NCBI GenBank assembly: GCA_050749405.1
Contig: JBOGRD010000015.1
Span: 4,581 to 36,580 of the forward strand
Source: Nitrosotalea sp.
GTDB lineage: Archaea; Thermoproteota; Nitrososphaeria; Nitrososphaerales; Nitrosopumilaceae
Direction of reading: 5' to 3'
Length of the DNA stretch: 32,000 nt
Part shown: positions 2,131 through 26,245 of the stretch, piece after piece
Numbering within the stretch: the stretch's first letter is position 1
Layout of the letters: each line of letters opens with the position of its first letter
Program-made: the position numbers and the translations under genes
The notes under the pieces: model-generated
Databases searched by the model: none
Told to the model about the DNA's origin: nothing
The model's input: only the letters and a program-made list of their open reading frames with translations

Positions 2131-2484
2131 TTACATTGCTTTACATGAGCATTCTGTAACCACTGCACCCTTTCTTGATGCAGCCCATTGCAATAATGGA
2201 ATAATAATATGATACAGTTTAACACCATCGTCGGTTAGACTATATTCAGTTCTTGGAAGCTTTTCATCAAAATCTTTTCTGAGTATCAATCTGTTTGATT
2301 GCAGTTCATTTAATGTATTTGTCAAGGATTTTGCTGTAATCCCTTTCAATTCTCTTCCTAATTCGTTAAACCTGATGCTTTTATGATTGCCGATCTCGTT
2401 GATTACAAGCAAAGACCATTTCTTGCTTATTATGTCAATTACACCCTGTAGGGGACAGAAAAGCACAATACTTTCTCGTTTCAT
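2131..2484 (-). CDS. HxlR-family winged-helix transcriptional regulator (paralog 1)
   Basis: 117 aa. Shows the HxlR signature CPLQGVIDIISKKWSLLVINEI...FNEL...GITAKSLTNTLNELQSNRLILRK...PRTEYSLT. The C-terminal tail is ECSCKAM. Confidence 0.85.
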   Translation of the reverse strand: MKRESIVLFCPLQGVIDIISKKWSLLVINEIGNHKSIRFNELGRELKGITAKSLTNTLNELQSNRLILRKDFDEKLPRTEYSLTDDGVKLYHIIIPLLQWAASRKGAVVTECSCKAM

Positions 2485-2539
2485 ACCAGTATCTTTGAAT
2501 AAACTTCACAACTTAAGTAGTTTCCTTTGTATACTGGTA
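2484..2539. promoter_or_regulatory. Divergent HxlR / thioredoxin-like intergenic region bounded by a 9-bp inverted repeat
   Basis: TACCAGTAT (2484-2492) and ATACTGGTA (2531-2539) sit at or next to the two divergent start codons (ATG 2484 on the minus strand, ATG 2541 on the plus strand). Confidence 0.4.
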
Positions 2540-2540
2540 C

Positions 2541-2810
2541 ATGGTAGAAAATCATACATTTGAAATATTCTCTGCAAACTGTCCGTTGTGCAAGAATATT
2601 GAGATTAGAAAGAATGAAGGATGCAGCCAAACAGTCCATGACGTAAACAACATGACTACAGAAATCAAGGAAAAAATGGAAAAATATGGGATAACGGCAG
2701 TACCTACCACGGTTATAGACGGAAAATACAAAATAGTTGGAATGCCTGATTTTCCTCTAGTATGTGGTGAAGATCTGTTCAAAAAGCTTCAAAAAGAATA
2801 TCCTCTATGA
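2541..2810 (+). CDS. Small thioredoxin-fold redox-active disulfide protein (glutaredoxin/Thioredoxin_3-like), CPLC motif
   Basis: 89 aa. N-terminal FSANCPLCKN and later GITAVPTTVIDGKYKIVG (cis-Pro region), typical of small archaeal thioredoxin-fold proteins. Divergent from HxlR paralog 1 across a 56-bp gap. Confidence 0.75.
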   Translation: MVENHTFEIFSANCPLCKNIEIRKNEGCSQTVHDVNNMTTEIKEKMEKYGITAVPTTVIDGKYKIVGMPDFPLVCGEDLFKKLQKEYPL

Positions 2811-3276
2811 CGACAGAAGCACAAGAGAGGAATCTAGGGGTGGCATCTTGAAAAACTTTCGAGGCACATGTGCTTGCGCGTCTGGTGGAATAGGAATATG
2901 TCTTTGTACAGTTTTCATGAGCTTTGGTATAGTTAGTTCTGCTGTAGTAGGAGTAGCAAAAAATGCTAATGACATGTCCAATATGGGAAACATGACTGGC
3001 ATGACTATGACATCACAAAACATCATCGTGACATTCTTCTCTGGTTTCTGGGGCGAAGTAATTTTGTTTCTTTCATTTGGTGCAATGTTTTCTGGAATAT
3101 GGTTTAGTGGTAACAGAAAGATCCTACCAATCTCAGCCGCTGGTGCCATAATACTATATGTCAGCATGTATGCATATTTTTCAATTAGTTTAGAAATTAT
3201 TGGTGGCATCGTGTTGGCTTTTGCATTCGTATCAGCTTATAGTAACAGAGTTGCAAGGACAATAAAACTAGCATAG
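2764..3276 (+). CDS. Membrane protein with Cys-rich first helix (CAC...CLC) and Met-rich loop; MerT/MerC-like in style
   Basis: ORF-track frame with about 4 hydrophobic segments. Motif GTCACASGGIGICLCTVF, then loop NDMSNMGNMTGMTMTS. The track start at 2764 overlaps the upstream gene by 47 nt, so an in-frame TTG at 2848 is a plausible true start. The stop coordinate is firm. Confidence 0.65.
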   Translation: MVKICSKSFKKNILYDDRSTREESRGGILKNFRGTCACASGGIGICLCTVFMSFGIVSSAVVGVAKNANDMSNMGNMTGMTMTSQNIIVTFFSGFWGEVILFLSFGAMFSGIWFSGNRKILPISAAGAIILYVSMYAYFSISLEIIGGIVLAFAFVSAYSNRVARTIKLA

Positions 3277-3383: not shown

Positions 3384-3866
3384 CTACATTTTACATGCAA
3401 TCTTGACATTCTTTGAGGTATAGTACAATGAAATTGCCAGGACAATAATTGCCGCCAATTTCAGTTCTAATCCTTGAAATGGGAATAATGCCAAAGCGCC
3501 ACCAAGACCAAATACGCCTAACAAAGGTGCAGTACATACAGGACATCCTGATGCTATTACTCCAGTAAAGGCACTACATGCGCTGGAACCCGCACCCTTT
3601 TTGAAACCCAAACTTCCTGTCATATGTTTTCTACAAAGAATCAGTGCTGTGTTTAACCCTGTCAGTATTGCTATGATAAAGCCCATAGCCACTGTGGTTA
3701 CAGTGAAAGATATTCCGTACATTTGGATGTATTTTGGTAACGGAGTAGGCGTAAAATCAAAAGTGAGTGACCAAAAGAGCGCGCCTAACGATACTGAAAT
3801 TACGATTGCAGTGATGGCATAAGCTGGTTTTTTTAACACTTGACCAACGGTACTCATGTTGCTCAT
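3384..3866 (-). CDS. 160-aa four-segment membrane protein with intramembrane CPVC motif (paralog A)
   Basis: Hydrophobic segments AYAITAIVISVSLGALFWSL, ISFTVTTVAMGFIIAILTGL, ACSAFTGVIASGCPVCTAPLLGVFGLGGALALF and LKLAAIIVLAISLYY. C-terminal ...IACKM. The start overlaps the thioredoxin stop in an ATGA junction (3863-3866). Confidence 0.75.
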   Translation of the reverse strand: MSNMSTVGQVLKKPAYAITAIVISVSLGALFWSLTFDFTPTPLPKYIQMYGISFTVTTVAMGFIIAILTGLNTALILCRKHMTGSLGFKKGAGSSACSAFTGVIASGCPVCTAPLLGVFGLGGALALFPFQGLELKLAAIIVLAISLYYTSKNVKIACKM

Positions 3867-4240
3867 TTTGCCTGCACTTTCTTTGTTAGTGATGAACTCT
3901 GTGAAAGGCAGTTAGGAATTGTAGTAAGCATTTTATCAAGTTCTAAGACAAGTTTTTCTTTTGTCATGTATCCAACAAGCTCTCCTACGTTTCTACCGTC
4001 ACAAAACATCCTAAGAACCGGGATTCCCATTATACCGTTTGCCTGTGCAATGTCCTCATGTTCCTCAACGTTTACCTTGGCAAATCCCAACTTTCCTTCA
4101 TACTGCTTTGAAACTTCGTCAAATATTGGCATTAGTTTCATGCACCAAGGGCACCAGGGAGCCCAGAAATCAACTATTACAGGGATTTTTGATGATGCTA
4201 CTCTGTCCTGCCAGTCGTTTGAAATATCAATCGTTGCCAA
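3863..4240 (-). CDS. Thioredoxin (variant active site WCPWC)
   Basis: 125 aa. VIVDFWAPWCPWCMKLMPIFDE...GIMGIPVLRMF is the canonical thioredoxin layout. It must start at TTG 4240, directly abutting the upstream TAA, because the active site lies upstream of any in-frame ATG. Confidence 0.85.
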   Translation of the reverse strand: MATIDISNDWQDRVASSKIPVIVDFWAPWCPWCMKLMPIFDEVSKQYEGKLGFAKVNVEEHEDIAQANGIMGIPVLRMFCDGRNVGELVGYMTKEKLVLELDKMLTTIPNCLSQSSSLTKKVQAK

Positions 4241-4402
4241 TTAACAACACCGCACAGCATGTCTTGCAATCTCTCTTGAGCAGCTCTTGTGTTTGTTGCA
4301 GTAATCCTCACACTGCTGCGCTAATTTGGGATCCTCGTATCTAAAACCACACGCATCGCACAGATACAGTTTTTGATCTGATTCTGTTAGTTCTTTTACC
4401 AT
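4241..4402 (-). CDS. Small Cys-rich (8 Cys) zinc-ribbon-like protein, 53 aa
   Basis: This is the C-terminal part of track ORF 4241..4771, taken from ATG 4402: MVKELTESDQKLYLCDACGFRYEDPKLAQQCEDYCNKHKSCSREIARHAVRCC. It ends immediately before the thioredoxin start. The upstream part of the long ORF overlaps the HxlR gene in antisense and looks non-coding. Confidence 0.5.
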   Translation of the reverse strand: MVKELTESDQKLYLCDACGFRYEDPKLAQQCEDYCNKHKSCSREIARHAVRCC

Positions 4403-4460
4403 GTCTTCACTATGAAATTCAAAGTATTTAAGATACAAAGTTCGTAGTAGAATAGTTACT

Positions 4461-4820
4461 ATGAAAAACCAAAGTAATGCAATTTGTTTGTGTCCGCTCG
4501 ATGGCGTAATAGATACAATTGGGAAAAAATGGGGGCTATTGATAATAAACGAAATTGGCAACCACGGTAAACTTAGATACAATGAATTAATGTCAGAACT
4601 GAAAGGAATCAGTCCCTCAACGCTGGCTTCAATGCTAAAGGATTTGGAAAAAGAAGATCTTATCATAAAAGAGGTTTTCAGAGAGATTCCTCCAAGAGTA
4701 GAATATTCACTGTCTGCAAGAGGCAAGGAACTTCGAGAGGCAATAATTCCACTGATAAGATGGGCTACCAAGAAAGGAAACTATACAGTTCACTGTACTT
4801 GCAGTCTAGTTAAGAAATAG
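4461..4820 (+). CDS. HxlR-family winged-helix transcriptional regulator (paralog 2)
   Basis: 119 aa. CLCPLDGVIDTIGKKWGLLIINEIGNHGKLRYNELMSELKGISPSTLASMLKDLEKEDLIIKEVFREIPPRVEYSLS. C-terminal tail HCTCSLVKK. Divergent from the Cys-rich/thioredoxin/membrane operon across 58 bp. Confidence 0.85.
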   Translation: MKNQSNAICLCPLDGVIDTIGKKWGLLIINEIGNHGKLRYNELMSELKGISPSTLASMLKDLEKEDLIIKEVFREIPPRVEYSLSARGKELREAIIPLIRWATKKGNYTVHCTCSLVKK

Positions 4821-4936: not shown

Positions 4937-5590
4937 GTGACTCCAAAGACTCTCCAGATAGCTACTTTTGGGCAAGATAAAGAGGGCATACTTGCGGGTT
5001 TACGCAACTTTCCGATTCATAAACTCATCTTACTCCATTACAAAGATGATGTAAAACTGGTAGAAGAATTTTCAAGTAATCTTCGCTCCACCCTTGGCAT
5101 TTCTATCTCTCTTAGACTAATTGCACAACCCGACATAATTCGAAGTGCCATGGAGTATGTTTCTCAAATCATAAAGGAAGAGGGAGCAAACTATGAGCAA
5201 ATTTTGATAAACGTAAGTGCGGGCGACAAAATGATAGGTTGTGCAGCACTCTCCTGCGCATTTGTAAATGGAATCAAGGCATTTGGGACTGACATGGAGG
5301 GAAATCCAATGCTTTTGCCTATCTTGAAGCTAAGTTACAACGAGATGATCTCTGACGCAAAGATCAAGATTTTACATGCAATAGACAATGCGGGAGGCTC
5401 GGTAGAAAGCCTTGATAATTTATCAAAACACTGTGAGTTTGGAAAACCACTTTTGAGTTATCACATACACGGGAGTTCGGAATCAAAGGGCTTGGTTCAG
5501 CTTGGACTTGTAGATGTTGAAAGATTAGAACGTGGGAGAACCAAGATTACCCTGAATACCCTAGGCAAGATGCTTATTTCTACGAAATAG
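4937..5590 (+). CDS. Csa3-like regulator: Rossmann/CARF-like N-domain plus C-terminal winged helix
   Basis: 217 aa, GTG start. The N-domain pattern LQIATFGQDKEGILAGL...HKLILLHY...ILINVSAGDKMIGCAAL resembles the Csa3/CARF layout (TMGF...; TGG/MR-type loop). The C-terminal part KIKILHAIDNAGGSVESLDNLSKH...GLVQLGLV is wHTH-like. The call rests on pattern resemblance only. Confidence 0.6.
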   Translation: MTPKTLQIATFGQDKEGILAGLRNFPIHKLILLHYKDDVKLVEEFSSNLRSTLGISISLRLIAQPDIIRSAMEYVSQIIKEEGANYEQILINVSAGDKMIGCAALSCAFVNGIKAFGTDMEGNPMLLPILKLSYNEMISDAKIKILHAIDNAGGSVESLDNLSKHCEFGKPLLSYHIHGSSESKGLVQLGLVDVERLERGRTKITLNTLGKMLISTK

Positions 5591-5740
5591 TTTCGATATT
5601 CCTCGTATTACCATATCTATTGGACAGGTCTCACAGTATACGGTGTGATTTGCCTGATGTTGTTCCAATTTCTCTTTTGATTCAAATTCCATATTGCATT
5701 CTGTGCATATATTCTTCGGCTCTTTTTTTTGATTTGCCAT
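5561..5740 (-). CDS. Small C2H2 zinc-finger protein, 59 aa (below ORF-track cut-off)
   Basis: Hand translation: MANQKKEPKNICTECNMEFESKEKLEQHQANHTVYCETCPIDMVIRGISKLFRRNKHLA. Contains C-x2-C-x12-H-x3-H. The 3' end overlaps the convergent 4937..5590 gene by 30 nt. Confidence 0.45.
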   Translation of the reverse strand: MANQKKEPKNICTECNMEFESKEKLEQHQANHTVYCETCPIDMVIRGISKLFRRNKHLA

Positions 5741-6961: not shown

Positions 6962-7123
6962 TTAGCTAAAGTCAAACAAAAACTTTGATGGATCAGCGTC
7001 AAACTCAGACTTACAGTTGGAACAACAAAAGTAGACGTCCTTTCCATCCATGGTTGATTTCAAGCTAGTTTGTCCTGCATCCACTTCCATACCACAAACG
7101 GGATCGATTGCCATTTCTGTCAT
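6962..7123 (-). CDS. YHS-domain (TRASH-type metal-binding) protein, 53 aa (below ORF-track cut-off)
   Basis: Hand translation: MTEMAIDPVCGMEVDAGQTSLKSTMDGKDVYFCCSNCKSEFDADPSKFLFDFS. DPVCGM...YFC(C)S..C..F...P is the YHS-domain consensus. Confidence 0.7.
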   Translation of the reverse strand: MTEMAIDPVCGMEVDAGQTSLKSTMDGKDVYFCCSNCKSEFDADPSKFLFDFS

Positions 7124-8247: not shown

Positions 8248-8730
8248 TCACTTTGTAATCTTACACTGTGCTGTTATCCCCTTCACGGAAACATAGTAAG
8301 TGTATCCCAAAATACCAATAGAAACCAGACGTAACGGAATCTCATAGTTAGTAAGAAAGGCAGTTGCAGTCCCACCAACGGCCCCAAATGCCGATACAAT
8401 TGCAAATCCAATGGACCCACAGCTGCAAGTTCCGGCACTTGCTCCAATTATGGAACCCAAAAATCCAGTTCCTGATTTCCTAACTCCACTTTTCATCAAT
8501 CTAATACGATAGATGCTAAGGCTAATGACAATTCCAGATAGAGCTGCAACTATTACAATTAAAACAAAATTAGCAATCTCATATGTTGGAACATAAAAAA
8601 GAAAATTTGGTGAAAAGAAGATAAATTCCGAGATTATAGAGAGAGCTATTAGTAGAGATGAAAATATGGATATGGTCAAAGCTAGGTATCTTTTTCTTGA
8701 AAAGACTAGTCGTAATGCTTCTCTTTGCAA
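8248..8730 (-). CDS. 160-aa four-segment membrane protein with intramembrane CSC motif (paralog B of 3384..3866)
   Basis: Same length and architecture as paralog A. GSIIGASAGTCSCGSIGFAIVSAFGAVGG aligns with GVIASGCPVCTAPLLGVFGLGGA. Shared C-terminal YY.S.K...A.CK. TTG start. Confidence 0.7.
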   Translation of the reverse strand: MQREALRLVFSRKRYLALTISIFSSLLIALSIISEFIFFSPNFLFYVPTYEIANFVLIVIVAALSGIVISLSIYRIRLMKSGVRKSGTGFLGSIIGASAGTCSCGSIGFAIVSAFGAVGGTATAFLTNYEIPLRLVSIGILGYTYYVSVKGITAQCKITK

Positions 8731-8881: not shown

Positions 8882-9805
8882 ATGAAACAAATTCATAGAT
8901 TATTTGTTCTATCTTCTATCTTGCTGATTGCTGGTACTTCTTATGCTTATGCTCAATATGGTGATAACATGCAAGGAAATAGCATGATGAATAATACGAT
9001 GTCTGGCGGGGGATCTAGCAGCAACCAAGCCATGATGAATGATAAGAACATGTCAAGTAGCATGATGAACGGTGGAAACATGTCAGGTGGCGGCTGGGGC
9101 AACAACAATACAATGATGAATGAAAGTAGCATGATGATGTCAAGCGGTAGTATTGATCTGTCAATGGCATCACCAGTACGAGGTTCTACAAGTGCTCCTG
9201 TTACAATAGTTGAATTTGGGGACTATCAGTGTCCAAAGTGTGATGCATGGTTCAAAAATGAAGAGCCTGCCATCCAGTCCAATTACATTGATACCAATAA
9301 GGCCAAGCTATACTATGTCGACTTTCCGTTCTTGGGTGCTGATTCACCAGTGGCAGCCCAAGCTGCACATTGTGCGGGAGATCAGGGAAAGTACTGGGAG
9401 TATCATGATTATTTGTATGCCAATCAACAAGGCGTTCAAAGCGGATGGGCAAGTGCAGACAACCTGAAATCATATGCTGCTACTTTAGGACTTGATACAG
9501 CCAAGTTCAACTCTTGCCTTGATTCTGGGAAATATGCTGACGCAGTATCCCATAACAAGGACATCGGAGTTTCAAAGGGAATACAAGGAACACCGGCATT
9601 TTTCATAATTGGACCCACCGGTACCATGACTGAGATCATGGGACCGCAACCTGCATCTGAGTTTTCTACGGTAATTGACCAAATAAGCACTCAGACAGTA
9701 CCTGAGTTTGGTTCCATTGCATCAATTGTGTTAATCGTTGCCGTAATTAGTGTAGTCGTGTTAACTGCAAAAACTAGAGTGACCTCAAGACTGAATTTGG
9801 TTTAG
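8882..9805 (+). CDS. DsbA-family thiol:disulfide oxidoreductase with Met/Asn-rich N-region and PEFG-type C-terminal anchor
   Basis: 307 aa. Signal peptide (LFVLSSILLIAGTSYAYA), then a low-complexity Met-rich segment, then the DsbA-like core VTIVEFGDYQCPKCDAWF...GIQGTPAFFI. The C-terminus is VPEFG plus a hydrophobic helix plus a basic tail. Confidence 0.85.
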   Translation: MKQIHRLFVLSSILLIAGTSYAYAQYGDNMQGNSMMNNTMSGGGSSSNQAMMNDKNMSSSMMNGGNMSGGGWGNNNTMMNESSMMMSSGSIDLSMASPVRGSTSAPVTIVEFGDYQCPKCDAWFKNEEPAIQSNYIDTNKAKLYYVDFPFLGADSPVAAQAAHCAGDQGKYWEYHDYLYANQQGVQSGWASADNLKSYAATLGLDTAKFNSCLDSGKYADAVSHNKDIGVSKGIQGTPAFFIIGPTGTMTEIMGPQPASEFSTVIDQISTQTVPEFGSIASIVLIVAVISVVVLTAKTRVTSRLNLV

Positions 9806-16647: not shown

Positions 16648-17751
16648 TCATGGAAGTGAAGGTGGAGTTGTTGCTCCAACCGGTGTTGCAGACGCGGTAT
16701 TAGACGGTTCACTTGTTCCAACTGAATTAATTGCCGAGACACGGTAGGTGTAGGTTGTCAGTGGAAGTACATTTGTGTCTGAATAAGTGGTTCCAGTTTT
16801 GCCAGTGTTTGCAACAAGAGTTGACCACGTATTTCCATTGTCAGTTGATCTCTCAATCATGTATCCTGTTATTGGAGTACCACCATTATCGCTTGGTGCA
16901 TTCCAGCTTAGATTGATTTGTAAAAGATTAGCTGTTGCAGTCAATCCGGTTGGAGGTGTTGGTACTACATTGAATGTAGTTGCGGTTGCAGTGTTAGATG
17001 GAGAGCTTGTTCCAACCGAGTTTATTGCAGATACTCTGTATGTGTATGTGGTACTGTGTACAAGTCCTGTATCAGAATATGTTGTTCCAGCAGAACCAGT
17101 ATTAGCTACAATTGTAGTCCAGGTCGTTCCACCATTGGTTGACTTTTCAATCATGTAACCTATGATGGAAGACCCGCCATTGTTTGAAGGTGCAATCCAT
17201 GATAAAGCAACTTGGGCATTACCAGCTGTTGCCCGTAGATTTTGTGGGGCAGATGGTGGCAGATACGGATTTTTCCAATATACATTAAATGTAATTCCAT
17301 TTGTTGTAAACCAATAATACTTGTAGTTTACGTTTGTAGCAGGATTATATGTACCTGGGAAGCCAACGTTTTCACTAAAAGTAAGGTTTTGATTAGGACC
17401 TGCACCAGAACATTGACTTTGGTCATATCCAAGTGTATTGTCGTAAGTCCAAATTTGCCCAGGCTGGGTATTGCCTTGACTACTCTGGTTTGCAACCTTA
17501 ACATTAACTGTCAAGGAGAATGTCTGGTTATTTAGCATCTGAAAGGATACATTGTTTTTCAGCGGATAGTAAGATTGGTTTCCAGCAATTATTGTAGCAT
17601 TGGTAATGTATGCGTTATATTGGTTGGTACAAGATGGCGGACCCATTGCAAATGCATTGTGTGAAATCATGCCAATTGATATTAGGAACAGTGAAGCAAA
17701 AATAAGTATCAGCCAATGATTCCTGCCATTGCTACTTTTCAGTAGATACAA
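16648..17751 (-). CDS. Secreted protein: variable N-domain plus two fibronectin type III domains (tandem paralog 1)
   Basis: 367 aa. Signal peptide ending AFA. Two FN3 repeats (PSAPQNLRATAGNAQVALSWIAPSNNGGSSIIGYMIEKSTNGGTTW...YTYRVSAINSVGTS). TTG start. Confidence 0.85.
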   Translation of the reverse strand: MYLLKSSNGRNHWLILIFASLFLISIGMISHNAFAMGPPSCTNQYNAYITNATIIAGNQSYYPLKNNVSFQMLNNQTFSLTVNVKVANQSSQGNTQPGQIWTYDNTLGYDQSQCSGAGPNQNLTFSENVGFPGTYNPATNVNYKYYWFTTNGITFNVYWKNPYLPPSAPQNLRATAGNAQVALSWIAPSNNGGSSIIGYMIEKSTNGGTTWTTIVANTGSAGTTYSDTGLVHSTTYTYRVSAINSVGTSSPSNTATATTFNVVPTPPTGLTATANLLQINLSWNAPSDNGGTPITGYMIERSTDNGNTWSTLVANTGKTGTTYSDTNVLPLTTYTYRVSAINSVGTSEPSNTASATPVGATTPPSLP

Positions 17752-17927
17752 TGTATGTATTCTAAACTCAATATATATCTCGATATACTAATAATCGCCT
17801 ATAAGATCAATACAGATAATTTCATAATGTTTAGCCAACTGCAAAACAGTGGTTTAAACAGTTTTTTCGAATAACCAACCAAAAATACTTTCTAAAGATA
17901 CTTTTTTGTATTTAGGGAAGACTCAGT

Positions 17928-19067
17928 CTAGGGAAGCGATGACTGCGTTATTGGACCAACGGAAGTTGTGGCTGATGCAATATTCGATGGGGAGCTTGTT
18001 CCAACATCATTGATTGCCGAGACACGGTAGGTGTAGGTTGTAAGTGGAAGTACATTCGTATCAGAATATGTAGTAATTGTACTGCCGGTATTGGTCACAA
18101 GTGTACTCCAAGTAGTACCACCATCAGTTGACCTTTCTATCATGTAACCTGTAATCAGAGTTCCACCGTTGTCACTTGGTGCATTCCAGCTTAGATTGAT
18201 TTGTAAAAGATTAGTTGTTGCAGTCAAACCTGTTGGCGGTGTTGGCACTGTATCAAATGTTCTTGCTGATGCGGTATTGGATGGAAAGCTGGTGCCTATC
18301 GAGTTTATTGCAGAGACTCTATACGTGTAGGTAGTGCTGTGTACAAGTCCAGTATCTGAATAGGTAGTAGAAGTGGATTCGGTGTTAGCAACAACAGTAG
18401 ACCAAGTTGTACCATTGTCTATAGATCTCTCTATCATGTAACCTGTAATTGCAGAACCACCGTTATTTGCAGGAGCTGTCCATGATAGATTGATTTGCGA
18501 TGATGATGTTGCGGTAGCAGAAAGATTTGTTGGTATTCCAGAAGGAGTTATAAACTGAACATTGTATGTTATGTGACCGCCAGGATAAAACCAACTGTAA
18601 AAGTTAACAGATTGTAAATACCCTGGATATGATGGTGTGTTTGGGTTATAAGGCAGATTCCTAGAAACAGTCACGTTTTGGTTAGGACCTACAGTGGTGG
18701 TTGTTCGGTCCGGAATGCAGTGACCATTACCATAAAACCATACATCATCATCGTACCACGTGGTACCGTTAAGTGTATTGCCCTGAGAACTTGTGCTTGG
18801 TGTGTGTATGACAAATTTTACACTATAACTACTGCCAAAATTCACATCAAACGTTACACCCGGATTTGCTATCGCATCAAATGTTTGACTCCCGTTGTTA
18901 ATTATGAAAGACGTTATTGGCCCATCATATCTATTAGTACATGTTCCCGGTGCATCACCCATTGCAAATGCATTGTGTGCAAACATACCAGATAATACTA
19001 AGAATAATGATGCAAAAACAAGTATTAGCCAATGATTCCTGCCATTGCTACTTTTCAGTAGATTCAA
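17928..19067 (-). CDS. Secreted protein: variable N-domain plus two fibronectin type III domains (tandem paralog 2)
   Basis: 379 aa. The N-terminus is near-identical to paralog 1 (LLKSSNGRNHWLIL.FASLFL), and the two FN3 repeats are highly similar at the nucleotide level. TTG start. Confidence 0.85.
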   Translation of the reverse strand: MNLLKSSNGRNHWLILVFASLFLVLSGMFAHNAFAMGDAPGTCTNRYDGPITSFIINNGSQTFDAIANPGVTFDVNFGSSYSVKFVIHTPSTSSQGNTLNGTTWYDDDVWFYGNGHCIPDRTTTTVGPNQNVTVSRNLPYNPNTPSYPGYLQSVNFYSWFYPGGHITYNVQFITPSGIPTNLSATATSSSQINLSWTAPANNGGSAITGYMIERSIDNGTTWSTVVANTESTSTTYSDTGLVHSTTYTYRVSAINSIGTSFPSNTASARTFDTVPTPPTGLTATTNLLQINLSWNAPSDNGGTLITGYMIERSTDGGTTWSTLVTNTGSTITTYSDTNVLPLTTYTYRVSAINDVGTSSPSNIASATTSVGPITQSSLP

Positions 19068-21600: not shown

Positions 21601-21629
21601 CGCGTATAGTCTCTATGTATGTGACTGAA
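21601..21629 (-). other. 23S 3' trailer half of the processing helix
   Basis: The reverse complement of 21601-21632 (CAGTTCAGTCACATACATAGAGACTATACGCG) pairs with 24630-24660 (TTCAGTCACATA / internal loop / GACTATACACG). This resembles an archaeal bulge-helix-bulge type processing stem. Confidence 0.6.
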
Positions 21630-24628
<2,999 letters not shown>

Positions 24629-24773
24629 ATTCAGTCACATATTACACGACTATACACGACGATCATCGCTAGTGCCGGGTCTCGACTACCAGCTACGTCC
24701 TTCACCGGATAGTTTCCTATCCAGTTGCATCTTTTGTGAAGAAAGTGTGTGAACCCACACAACCCAATTTTCT
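24629..24773 (-). other. 16S-23S internal transcribed spacer, no tRNA
   Basis: About 145 nt. It is occupied by the 23S 5' stem half (24630-24660) and the 16S 3' stem half (24738-24758). No cloverleaf-compatible sequence was seen. Confidence 0.7.

Positions 24774-26245
<1,472 letters not shown>

Follow-up and report, generated by a model that had tools for sequence, protein, structure and literature searches.

The closest described counterparts of the locus examined here are two kinds of cysteine chain at a membrane. The Mer chain (MerP, MerT, MerC and MerF, NmerA, the vicinal CC of MerA, and in archaea the TRASH protein MerH) combines an intramembrane cysteine pair and cytoplasmic cysteines with a small cytosolic cysteine-rich partner, and the CcdA/DsbD/ScsB systems lead from a cytoplasmic thioredoxin through a membrane cysteine pair to an extracytoplasmic thioredoxin-fold protein (ResA, TlpA, ScsC or ScsD). 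Two further points of reference are thioredoxin 2 of E. coli (TrxC), in which a cysteine-ligated zinc module accompanies a thioredoxin under an oxidative-stress regulator, and the HxlR/DUF24 sensors (B. subtilis HxlR, HypR/YybR and YodB, and S. aureus QsrR). The locus lies at positions 3384 to 4820 of a 32,000-nucleotide stretch of Nitrosotalea sp. DNA (contig JBOGRD010000015.1; the whole stretch is referred to as the window), and comprises genes for a small cysteine-rich protein, a thioredoxin and a membrane protein, divergent from a gene for an HxlR-family regulator. By analogy, the module appears to work most like a Mer-type or Scs-type relay, built from uncharacterised families. A literature search found nothing relevant on DUF7128 (the family that the small protein borders), on a WCPWC active site, on this operon, or on HxlR together with thioredoxin in Thaumarchaeota or Nitrosopumilus.

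The module has three components, each rich in cysteine and facing the cytoplasm, which are fused or cannot be separated genetically, and its regulator comes from a thiol-sensing family; we therefore read it as a cysteine relay that thiol stress induces and that operates on the cytoplasmic side of the membrane. The relay would most likely carry a soft metal, and we hold this reading tentatively, with somewhat less than even confidence. The features of the locus are as follows.

4402..4241, minus strand: open reading frame for the 53-residue protein, a predicted Cys4 finger, ATG to TAA.
4240..3863, minus strand: 125-residue thioredoxin with a WCPWC active site; its TTG start is the codon directly after the finger TAA.
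3866..3384, minus strand: 160-residue membrane protein with a GCPVC motif; its ATG overlaps the thioredoxin TGA as ATGA (3866..3863).
4461..4820, plus strand: 119-residue winged-helix regulator of the HxlR family, divergent from the operon across a 58-nucleotide gap (4403..4460).
4403..4476: compact bidirectional control region, two imperfect palindromes around an AT-rich, TATA-like element.

The sequence-only reading of this DNA had described a gap-free minus-strand operon with a TAA TTG junction, an ATGA overlap and an HxlR gene 58 base pairs away, and this geometry was borne out. Its count of eight cysteines in the small protein was not: there are seven (C15, C18, C31, C35, C41, C52 and C53), which is also what its own listing adds up to.

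The layout was compared across 15 related loci collected from thaumarchaeal metagenome-assembled genomes with the membrane protein as bait, 14 of which are distinct and have upstream DNA. In all 14, the HxlR gene diverges from the finger gene (as it also does in a further locus, L098) and the finger and membrane genes adjoin, so that the three genes and the divergent regulator proved to be a conserved unit. The constant part of that unit is the HxlR gene, the divergent finger gene and then the membrane gene. The thioredoxin gene is inserted in ten of the 14 and missing in L003, L004, L012 and L015, where the finger gene leads straight to the membrane gene; the proposed three-gene operon thus stands as a conserved unit, but not with the thioredoxin as an obligate member. 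The proposed coupling geometry fared likewise, in that the junctions themselves are conserved. In seven loci, an NTG start comes immediately after the finger stop (TTG in four, GTG, ATG and CTG in one each), the finger-to-thioredoxin spacing is 4-5 nucleotides in the three further thioredoxin-bearing loci, and the spacing from finger to membrane gene is 5-7 nucleotides where the thioredoxin is absent. The thioredoxin stop overlaps the next start as ATGA in all ten loci that have it. Because the junctions are always tight, at 0-8 nucleotides or with the ATGA overlap, they support co-transcription and coupled translation of the termination-reinitiation type.

Two variants of this layout were observed. 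L010 departs from the TTG, GTG or ATG of the other loci: at its positions 3387-3392, CTG comes immediately after the finger stop TAG; this is either an unusual start codon or a sign of dependence on reinitiation or read-through. Read-through of the stop at the seven loci with an abutting in-frame NTG (CTG in L010) could occasionally yield a finger-thioredoxin fusion, which exists elsewhere as a natural single gene. In L009 (3756-4004) and L010 (3760-4008), a gene for an additional protein of 82 residues stands between the thioredoxin and membrane genes and overlaps both. This protein has an N-terminal cysteine cluster and two hydrophobic helices with FCPIACG, and resembles DUF2933-like segments that are fused to the finger in Patescibacteria; it gave no significant Pfam match, the L010 copy yielding only a weak, sub-threshold hit to CstA.

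The 53-residue open reading frame is a real protein-coding gene under purifying selection. It is present in all 14 loci, starting with MVK(E/Q/D), although gene callers had not called it in L004 and L005 and had over-extended it to 70-71 residues in P0003 and P0005. The ratio of nonsynonymous to synonymous substitution rates (dN/dS, Nei-Gojobori) had an overall median of 0.12 and lay at 0.04-0.08 for comparisons with the closest loci, whereas the same DNA read in the two other frames gave 0.80 and 1.45, and third codon positions were the most variable in the alignment. Lack of conservation at the protein level had been named beforehand as grounds for discarding the operon proposal; what was found is the opposite. 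The homologue search proposed at the same time was run as an exhaustive profile search and matched 629 cluster representatives at E <= 1e-3, mostly of 45-90 residues, the clusters being defined at 50% identity. Among the window protein and its five closest relatives, 33 of the 53 residues are invariant.

With respect to family, the window finger scored 22.0 bits against DUF7128 (PF23447; E 1.5e-4; gathering threshold 25.7 bits), its orthologue P0133, from a locus of the thioredoxin-less type, scored 30.0 bits, and 94 of 137 finger relatives matched the model at E <= 0.01. The window protein is therefore placed, by sequence, as a divergent, borderline neighbour of DUF7128. The near-invariant residues of the family are C15, C18, Y22, A28, C31, C35, C41 and I45. 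The motif C15-X2-C18-X12-C31-X3-C35 (C-X2-C-X3-Y-X5-A-X2-C-X3-C) is spaced exactly like that of a classical C2H2 finger, although cysteines take the place of the two histidines, and it is followed by a conserved tail, H-x-S-C-[SN]-x-E-I, which carries the fifth cysteine, C41. The terminal CC that had been singled out earlier is present, but is limited to the closest subclade; the signature of the family as a whole is the Cys4 site plus one extra cysteine.

A profile search of the PDB returned only C2H2 fingers (PRDM9 and others), through the Y-x-C-x-x-C-G knuckle. The AlphaFold model, built from 137 sequences, has a mean predicted local distance difference test score (pLDDT) of 86.7 and consists of a hairpin, a strand and a helix. 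Its best fold matches in the PDB were Kaiso and a C2H2 protein of T. kodakarensis, with root-mean-square deviations of 2.2-2.6 A over about 40 residues and E > 0.1, values that denote compatibility with the C2H2 fold, not proof of it. Like C2H2 fingers, including small archaeal C2H2 proteins, the window protein has identical ligand spacing and corresponding core positions (Y22 and A28); unlike them, it has cysteines in place of both histidines, a tail with a fifth cysteine and no sign of nucleic-acid binding. The Pfam C2H2 models did not match it, and the strict ligand set C-X2-4-C-X12-H-X3-5-H is absent. Pfam scans of the window protein and its relatives likewise gave no match to HMA, HMBD or TRASH/YHS models, and hydropathy analysis found no hydrophobic segment. 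On the basis of the model, the protein is a Cys4 beta-beta-alpha zinc finger with a predicted zinc site. An identity as a zinc-binding anti-sigma factor was also considered and rejected, as the HxxxCxxC motif is missing and archaea have no sigma factors.

The membrane protein matched no Pfam or NCBIfam family, and a scan of 109 members of its family at E <= 1 gave no hit to MerT, MerC, DsbD, DsbB or VKOR. A word-index search found 123 homologues, mostly from Nitrosotalea or other Nitrosopumilaceae, an identical database entry is annotated as stemming from a Nitrosotalea sp. metagenome-assembled genome, and the protein is about 30% identical to a large family in Patescibacteria. With the latter included, C108, C111, G120, P129, G132, E134 and K136 are invariant, and C158 nearly so. 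Hydropathy analysis indicated four hydrophobic segments, with GCPVC in the third, and positive charges cluster at the N-terminus, in loop 2 and at the C-terminus; by the positive-inside rule, this distribution predicts a topology with both termini in the cytoplasm. That topology would put every one of the five cysteines either on the cytoplasmic side of the membrane or within its inner half. The AlphaFold model from 109 sequences reached a pLDDT of only 64, with the CPVC region below 50, and a fold search of the PDB with so poor a model was uninformative, returning meaningless matches. The protein as an analogue of DsbB or VKOR was rejected, since its cysteines are on the wrong (cytoplasmic) side and no model hits were obtained.

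A paralogue of the membrane protein is encoded in the window at 8248-8730, with CSC in place of CPVC (E 3e-12 to the family profile). It adjoins the gene for a 307-residue secreted DsbA-like protein (8882-9805) that has a CPKC motif, an Asn/Met-rich N-terminal region and a C-terminal transmembrane segment. In L003 (7756-9027), the corresponding paralogue and DsbA-like genes stand in tandem, 3 nucleotides apart, and the two proteins may form a DsbA-partner pair. DsbA-like genes lie within 4 kb of the operon in the window, L003 and L005.

Some Patescibacteria encode long forms of the membrane protein, of about 470-495 residues (L017 4390-6449; L100 4400-6476; P0300, P0364 and P0373), with an added fifth helix and an extracytoplasmic, cysteine-containing domain of about 270 residues (RPCCDNSTFFQDCNHG ... 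GCGV), for which no family hit was obtained. In 11 of 11 such loci with upstream DNA (L016-L019, L022, L026, L027, L029, L038, L087 and L100), the long form is preceded by a His-rich protein of about 200 residues with a transmembrane anchor (HWHP ... HTHDDSGTLHWE).

The thioredoxin is a clear member of its family (PF00085, 85.7 bits, cutoff 23.5) and falls just under the cutoff of the equivalog model TIGR01068 (93.7 bits, cutoff 96.8). The replacement of the canonical WCGPC by WCPWC, pointed out in the sequence-only reading, is invariant in all ten thioredoxin-bearing loci, in the context WAPWCPWC in nine and WASWCPWC in L013, and recurs in the fusion protein P0128; a related thioredoxin in L099 has CSWC. 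Since the window thioredoxin still has its buried Asp (VDFWA), a Trp ahead of the first Cys and the cis-Pro context (GIPV), it should be redox-active. A Pro-X dipeptide raises the redox potential of thioredoxin-fold proteins, as variants of the dipeptide between the cysteines have established, and by analogy the WCPWC thioredoxin is expected to be more oxidising. Two extra cysteines are conserved, in FC79DG and in NC109L of the C-terminal extension, and both also occur in the L099 protein. Since the thioredoxin has no hydrophobic segment, it is placed in the cytoplasm.

The divergent regulator belongs to the HxlR family (PF01638, 79 bits, cutoff 20.8) and has N-terminal cysteines at positions 9 and 11 and a C-terminal CxC. 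Its best relatives in the PDB are EF0647, B. subtilis HxlR (7bzd), HypR/YybR, QsrR and YodB, and Cys11 aligns with the N-terminal sensing cysteine of B. subtilis HxlR. The palindrome ACTATGAAA-N-CAAAGTA occurs in two copies, at 4408-4426 and 4457-4476, 49-50 base pairs apart, and the pattern TACTWT-N5-8-WWAGTA occurs once in the 32 kb (reported on both strands) versus 0.11 expected. The 58-nucleotide spacer and the first HxlR codons are almost invariant across the 14 loci, and in L005 and L014 both palindrome half-sites change together. A TATA-like element, TTAAATA (4431..4425, minus strand), lies between the palindromes and ends 23 nucleotides before the finger ATG; because archaeal TATA boxes are centred near -26, the finger transcript is predicted to be leaderless. 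The complementary TATTTAAGATA sits about 30 nucleotides before the HxlR ATG. The regulator would be a candidate to bind and repress at both palindromes, and to regulate its own gene. Family match, aligned N-terminal cysteine and divergent layout are shared with the HxlR/DUF24 sensors, and we liken the TACT...AGTA-type palindromes to the YodB box; the window regulator differs in being archaeal and in the longer spacing of its half-sites, and its DNA binding is a prediction. Neither Rfam nor tRNA scans detected an RNA element in the operon region, and a scan for bacterial sigma-70 promoters and terminators is uninformative for an archaeon.

Outside the thaumarchaeal loci, the finger recurs as part of larger proteins and in the company of metal-resistance genes, links that the sequence-only reading did not contain. 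It is fused to a WCPWC thioredoxin in P0128 (169 residues, six cluster members, with a vicinal C-terminal CC), while in Patescibacteria (P0271 and at least 12 other loci) it forms the N-terminal part of a fusion with the CPxC membrane protein. Adjacency in all 14 thaumarchaeal loci and fusion in Patescibacteria together argue that the finger and the membrane protein are functionally inseparable. Further fusions join the finger to an AhpC/TSA-type redoxin (L037 and L059), MsrA (L033), GrpE (L079), a glycosyltransferase (L066) and DUF2933-type transmembrane segments. In L063, it stands N-terminal to a His-rich linker, an HMBD domain and a P1B-ATPase; the P1B-ATPase gene of L052 ends in an overlap with the finger start, and L087 has two such genes side by side. 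In these three loci, the finger takes the position of a metal-binding domain, ahead of HMBD or beside the pump. Clustering of the neighbours at 80 Patescibacteria finger loci, however, returned mostly heterogeneous and unrelated genes, so the finger alone is not a specific marker of metal islands. Nor is the family confined to redox or metal operons, as the archaeal homologue P0130 (53 residues) abuts a Ham1-like ITPase gene, stop to start, near ribosomal protein genes. Taken together, these contexts suggest a general module that clearly favours thiol-redox and metal proteins as partners. A tblastn search of 72,556 plasmids with a Patescibacteria-type finger and the window membrane protein found no match.

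Several homologues do lie among metal genes. L017 encodes ArsR, a 202-residue partner, the membrane protein, MerA (TIGR02053, 521 bits, cutoff 454), a DsbD_2/cupredoxin protein and HMA, with a P1B-ATPase nearby. L016 runs from ArsR to the membrane protein and then a P1B-ATPase, and L100 carries ArsR-YHS, DsbD_TM, DUF305 and a P1B-ATPase. In the GC-rich archaeal locus L099, MerA (592 bits, C-terminal CC) is followed by two small open reading frames, the CSWC thioredoxin, which is of the same subfamily as that of the window, and then the finger; in L065, a MerA fragment adjoins. L098 is of another kind: the HxlR gene diverges from a finger-thioredoxin fusion, a ResA/TlpA-like redoxin with a transmembrane anchor (WCTPC) and a 153-residue CPAC membrane protein, all abutting.

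In the cysteine relay that we favour, an HxlR repressor with a reactive N-terminal cysteine would occupy the two palindromes flanking a shared, probably leaderless, bidirectional promoter, and would release the operon upon attack on cytoplasmic thiols. The Cys4 finger, with its extra cysteine, would be the obligate cytosolic partner domain of the membrane protein, whose CPxC would begin a helix within the half of the bilayer nearer the cytoplasm, close to further cytoplasmic cysteines. Cargo would then pass between cysteine sites by ligand or disulfide exchange. The most likely cargo would be a soft metal ion like Cu(I) or Hg(II)/Cd(II); the finger would then play the part that an N-terminal metal-binding domain has in metal pumps and in MerA, and the CPWC thioredoxin would either accept the metal or keep the relay cysteines reduced. 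The reality of the genes, their conservation, domains, fusions and neighbourhoods are observed; that the three proteins touch, which way the cargo travels and what it is are points that we infer. A relay at the cytoplasmic face fits the topology, with all cysteines of the membrane protein cytoplasmic and neither the finger nor the thioredoxin possessing a hydrophobic segment.

What speaks for a metal as cargo is that the finger is fused to a P1B-ATPase, that MerA is adjacent in three loci (L017, L099 and, as a fragment, L065), that homologues occur in ArsR and HMA contexts and that there are CC tails; the vicinal CC of the closest subclade and of P0128 recalls, in our view, the tails of MerA and MerF. 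The module shares with the Mer chain the intramembrane cysteine pair, the cytoplasmic cysteines, the small cytosolic cysteine-rich partner and the vicinal CC tails, and MerA is found beside the membrane homologue (L017) and beside thioredoxin and finger (L099). It differs in that Pfam and NCBIfam scans gave no MerT, MerC or MerF match and no TRASH or HMA match, in that the window has no MerA, and in that its regulator is HxlR, not MerR or ArsR. In the mer literature, early archaeal lineages are described as carrying MerA without known accessory functions, transporters or chaperones (PMC8261052).

It should be noted that a number of observations weigh against this reading. No MerA, P1B-ATPase or ArsR/MerR/CsoR gene was found in the window or in the thaumarchaeal loci, and no energy-coupling element for transport is evident. 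Known HxlR relatives sense electrophiles and oxidants, not metals, and the zinc in a Cys4 beta-beta-alpha site typically has a structural role. The fusions of the finger to MsrA, redoxin, GrpE and glycosyltransferase, and its unrelated neighbourhoods, show that it is not a dedicated metal domain. The membrane-protein model is of low confidence, as given above. Lastly, thaumarchaeal relatives of the membrane protein pair with ResA-like (L098) and DsbA-like proteins (window and L003), which a relay of electrons fits equally well.

Such a relay is the close rival, and we regard it as possible but doubtful. The module would then be a transmembrane thiol-disulfide relay, a functional analogue of CcdA/DsbD/ScsB, in which a finger-docked CPWC thioredoxin reduces the intramembrane CPxC and, through it, extracytoplasmic DsbA-like and ResA/TlpA-like proteins, in order to repair or prevent wrong disulfides in secreted copper proteins under oxidant or copper stress. 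The thioredoxin is linked translationally to the next gene by ATGA in the ten loci that have it and retains its catalytic support residues, and the logic from cytoplasmic thioredoxin to membrane cysteine pair to extracytoplasmic thioredoxin-fold protein would be that of CcdA/DsbD/ScsB. The abutting genes of L098, the paralogue beside the DsbA-like gene (tandem in L003) and the DsbA-like genes within 4 kb of the operon supply the outer partners that this reading calls for, and the HxlR-divergent loci of thaumarchaeal type (L098, the window and L003) point towards redox and away from metal islands. That HxlR relatives are thiol-redox sensors and that the finger is fused to MsrA and to redoxins agree with it as well. 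Occurrence in copper and metal islands is common to both systems. Scs-type relays are themselves copper-tolerance genes, so metal and redox roles can be entangled, and this would account for the metal-island contexts under an electron relay.

An electron relay has difficulties of its own, however. There is no detectable sequence relation to DsbD, CcdA, DsbB or VKOR. With regard to CcdA/DsbD in particular (PF02683 and PF13386), no homology was found, and both invariant cysteines lie in one helix as CPxC, whereas the known proteins have one cysteine in each of two. The membrane protein has four hydrophobic segments versus six, no cysteine on the outer side, and an obligate zinc-finger partner that CcdA, DsbD and ScsB do not have. 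The thioredoxin is absent from four of the 14 loci and the finger from none, the N-terminal finger fusion of the P1B-ATPase and the MerA adjacencies (L017, L065 and L099) are left unexplained, and L017 and L100 already encode DsbD-type proteins.

It is unlikely that the module is instead a split form of thioredoxin 2 serving cytoplasmic oxidative-stress defence, in which the finger would serve the thioredoxin and other thiol enzymes as a zinc redox switch or for substrate recognition, and the membrane protein would be a target or anchor rather than a conduit. The likeness to TrxC is real as far as it goes: a cysteine-ligated zinc module goes with a thioredoxin under HxlR control, the finger stop and the thioredoxin start are adjacent and in frame, the two are a single protein in P0128, further finger fusions involve an AhpC/TSA redoxin, MsrA and GrpE, and the window thioredoxin aligns with the TrxC core, that is, with TrxC minus its zinc domain (NF008229, model positions 38-137 of 141). 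The score of that alignment, however, is 76.2 bits against a cutoff of 125, which together with the zinc module being a separate gene with a different motif places the thioredoxin outside TrxC. The finger has a C2H2-like C-X2-C-X12-C-X3-C motif and a beta-beta-alpha fold unlike the TrxC zinc domain, which has two CxxC knuckles, and the active site is WCPWC. Its constant partner is the membrane protein, not the thioredoxin: it persists, coupled to the membrane gene, in the four thioredoxin-less loci, and in many Patescibacteria it shares one polypeptide with the membrane protein.

The idea that the 53-residue open reading frame is non-functional (a chance or upstream regulatory reading frame, or a leader peptide), with only the thioredoxin and membrane protein of importance, has in its favour that the frame is short, cysteine-rich and often missed or mis-started by gene callers, but is extremely improbable, and a chance frame or leader peptide is ruled out, given a dN/dS of 0.04-0.12 versus 0.8-1.4 in other frames, the invariant residues and 629 cluster representatives, the confident model, and the presence of the domain in multiple independent fusions.

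Further features of the window were recorded beside the operon. Module B (2131-3276) is convergent with the main operon, and the same layout stands beside the main operon in L006 and L007. Its genes, and a gene pair on the other side of the HxlR gene, are the following.

2131-2484, minus strand: HxlR paralogue of Module B, divergent from the gene for the 89-residue protein.
2541-2810: 89-residue Thioredoxin_3/MJ0307-like protein of Module B, with CPLC.
2764-3276: 170-residue cysteine-rich membrane protein of Module B, CACASGGIGICLC, no family hit.
4937-5590, plus strand: Rossmann protein, HFX_2341_N/Csa3-like, overlapping the convergent C2H2 gene.
5561-5740, minus strand: 59-residue classical C2H2 zinc-finger protein.

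The membrane protein of Module B was considered as a member of the CPxC family and rejected, as the profile gave no hit. The Csa3-like and C2H2 pair is syntenic with the HxlR gene in L001, L007, L009, L010 and L015. Another 53-residue open reading frame, at 6962-7123 between two multi-pass membrane proteins, has a YHS/TRASH-like pattern (C-X22-CC-X2-C) and may encode another small metal-binding protein. At 16648-19067 are two tandem paralogous secreted proteins (367 and 379 residues) with near-identical signal-anchor N-termini and repeats that look like fibronectin type III. A complete archaeal 16S/23S rRNA operon occupies 21626-26244 on the minus strand; open reading frames inside it (e.g. 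22249-23078) are spurious.

Ammonia-oxidising archaea rely on many secreted copper proteins and inhabit acid soils, in which soft metals are mobile. To our knowledge, the metal-trafficking and envelope disulfide machinery of these archaea is largely unknown. With considerable doubt, we suggest that ammonia-oxidising archaea and Patescibacteria may have in common a hitherto unrecognised class of membrane cysteine relay, formed by the finger and the four-helix CPxC protein, which would supply a missing metal hand-off of the MerT/NmerA type or a missing redox partner of the DsbD/DsbB type in lineages that have no known component of either kind. If the reading offered here is true, it would give a testable role to a widespread family of small proteins, to a membrane family for which there is no model and to an atypical CPWC subfamily of thioredoxins, and the locus would show in compact form how an archaeal promoter can be leaderless, bidirectional and under HxlR control. 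With electrons as cargo, the module would be a new, non-homologous solution to the DsbD/CcdA problem. Altogether, the module offers a concrete, testable starting point for the study of how ammonia-oxidising archaea and Patescibacteria handle metals and disulfides.

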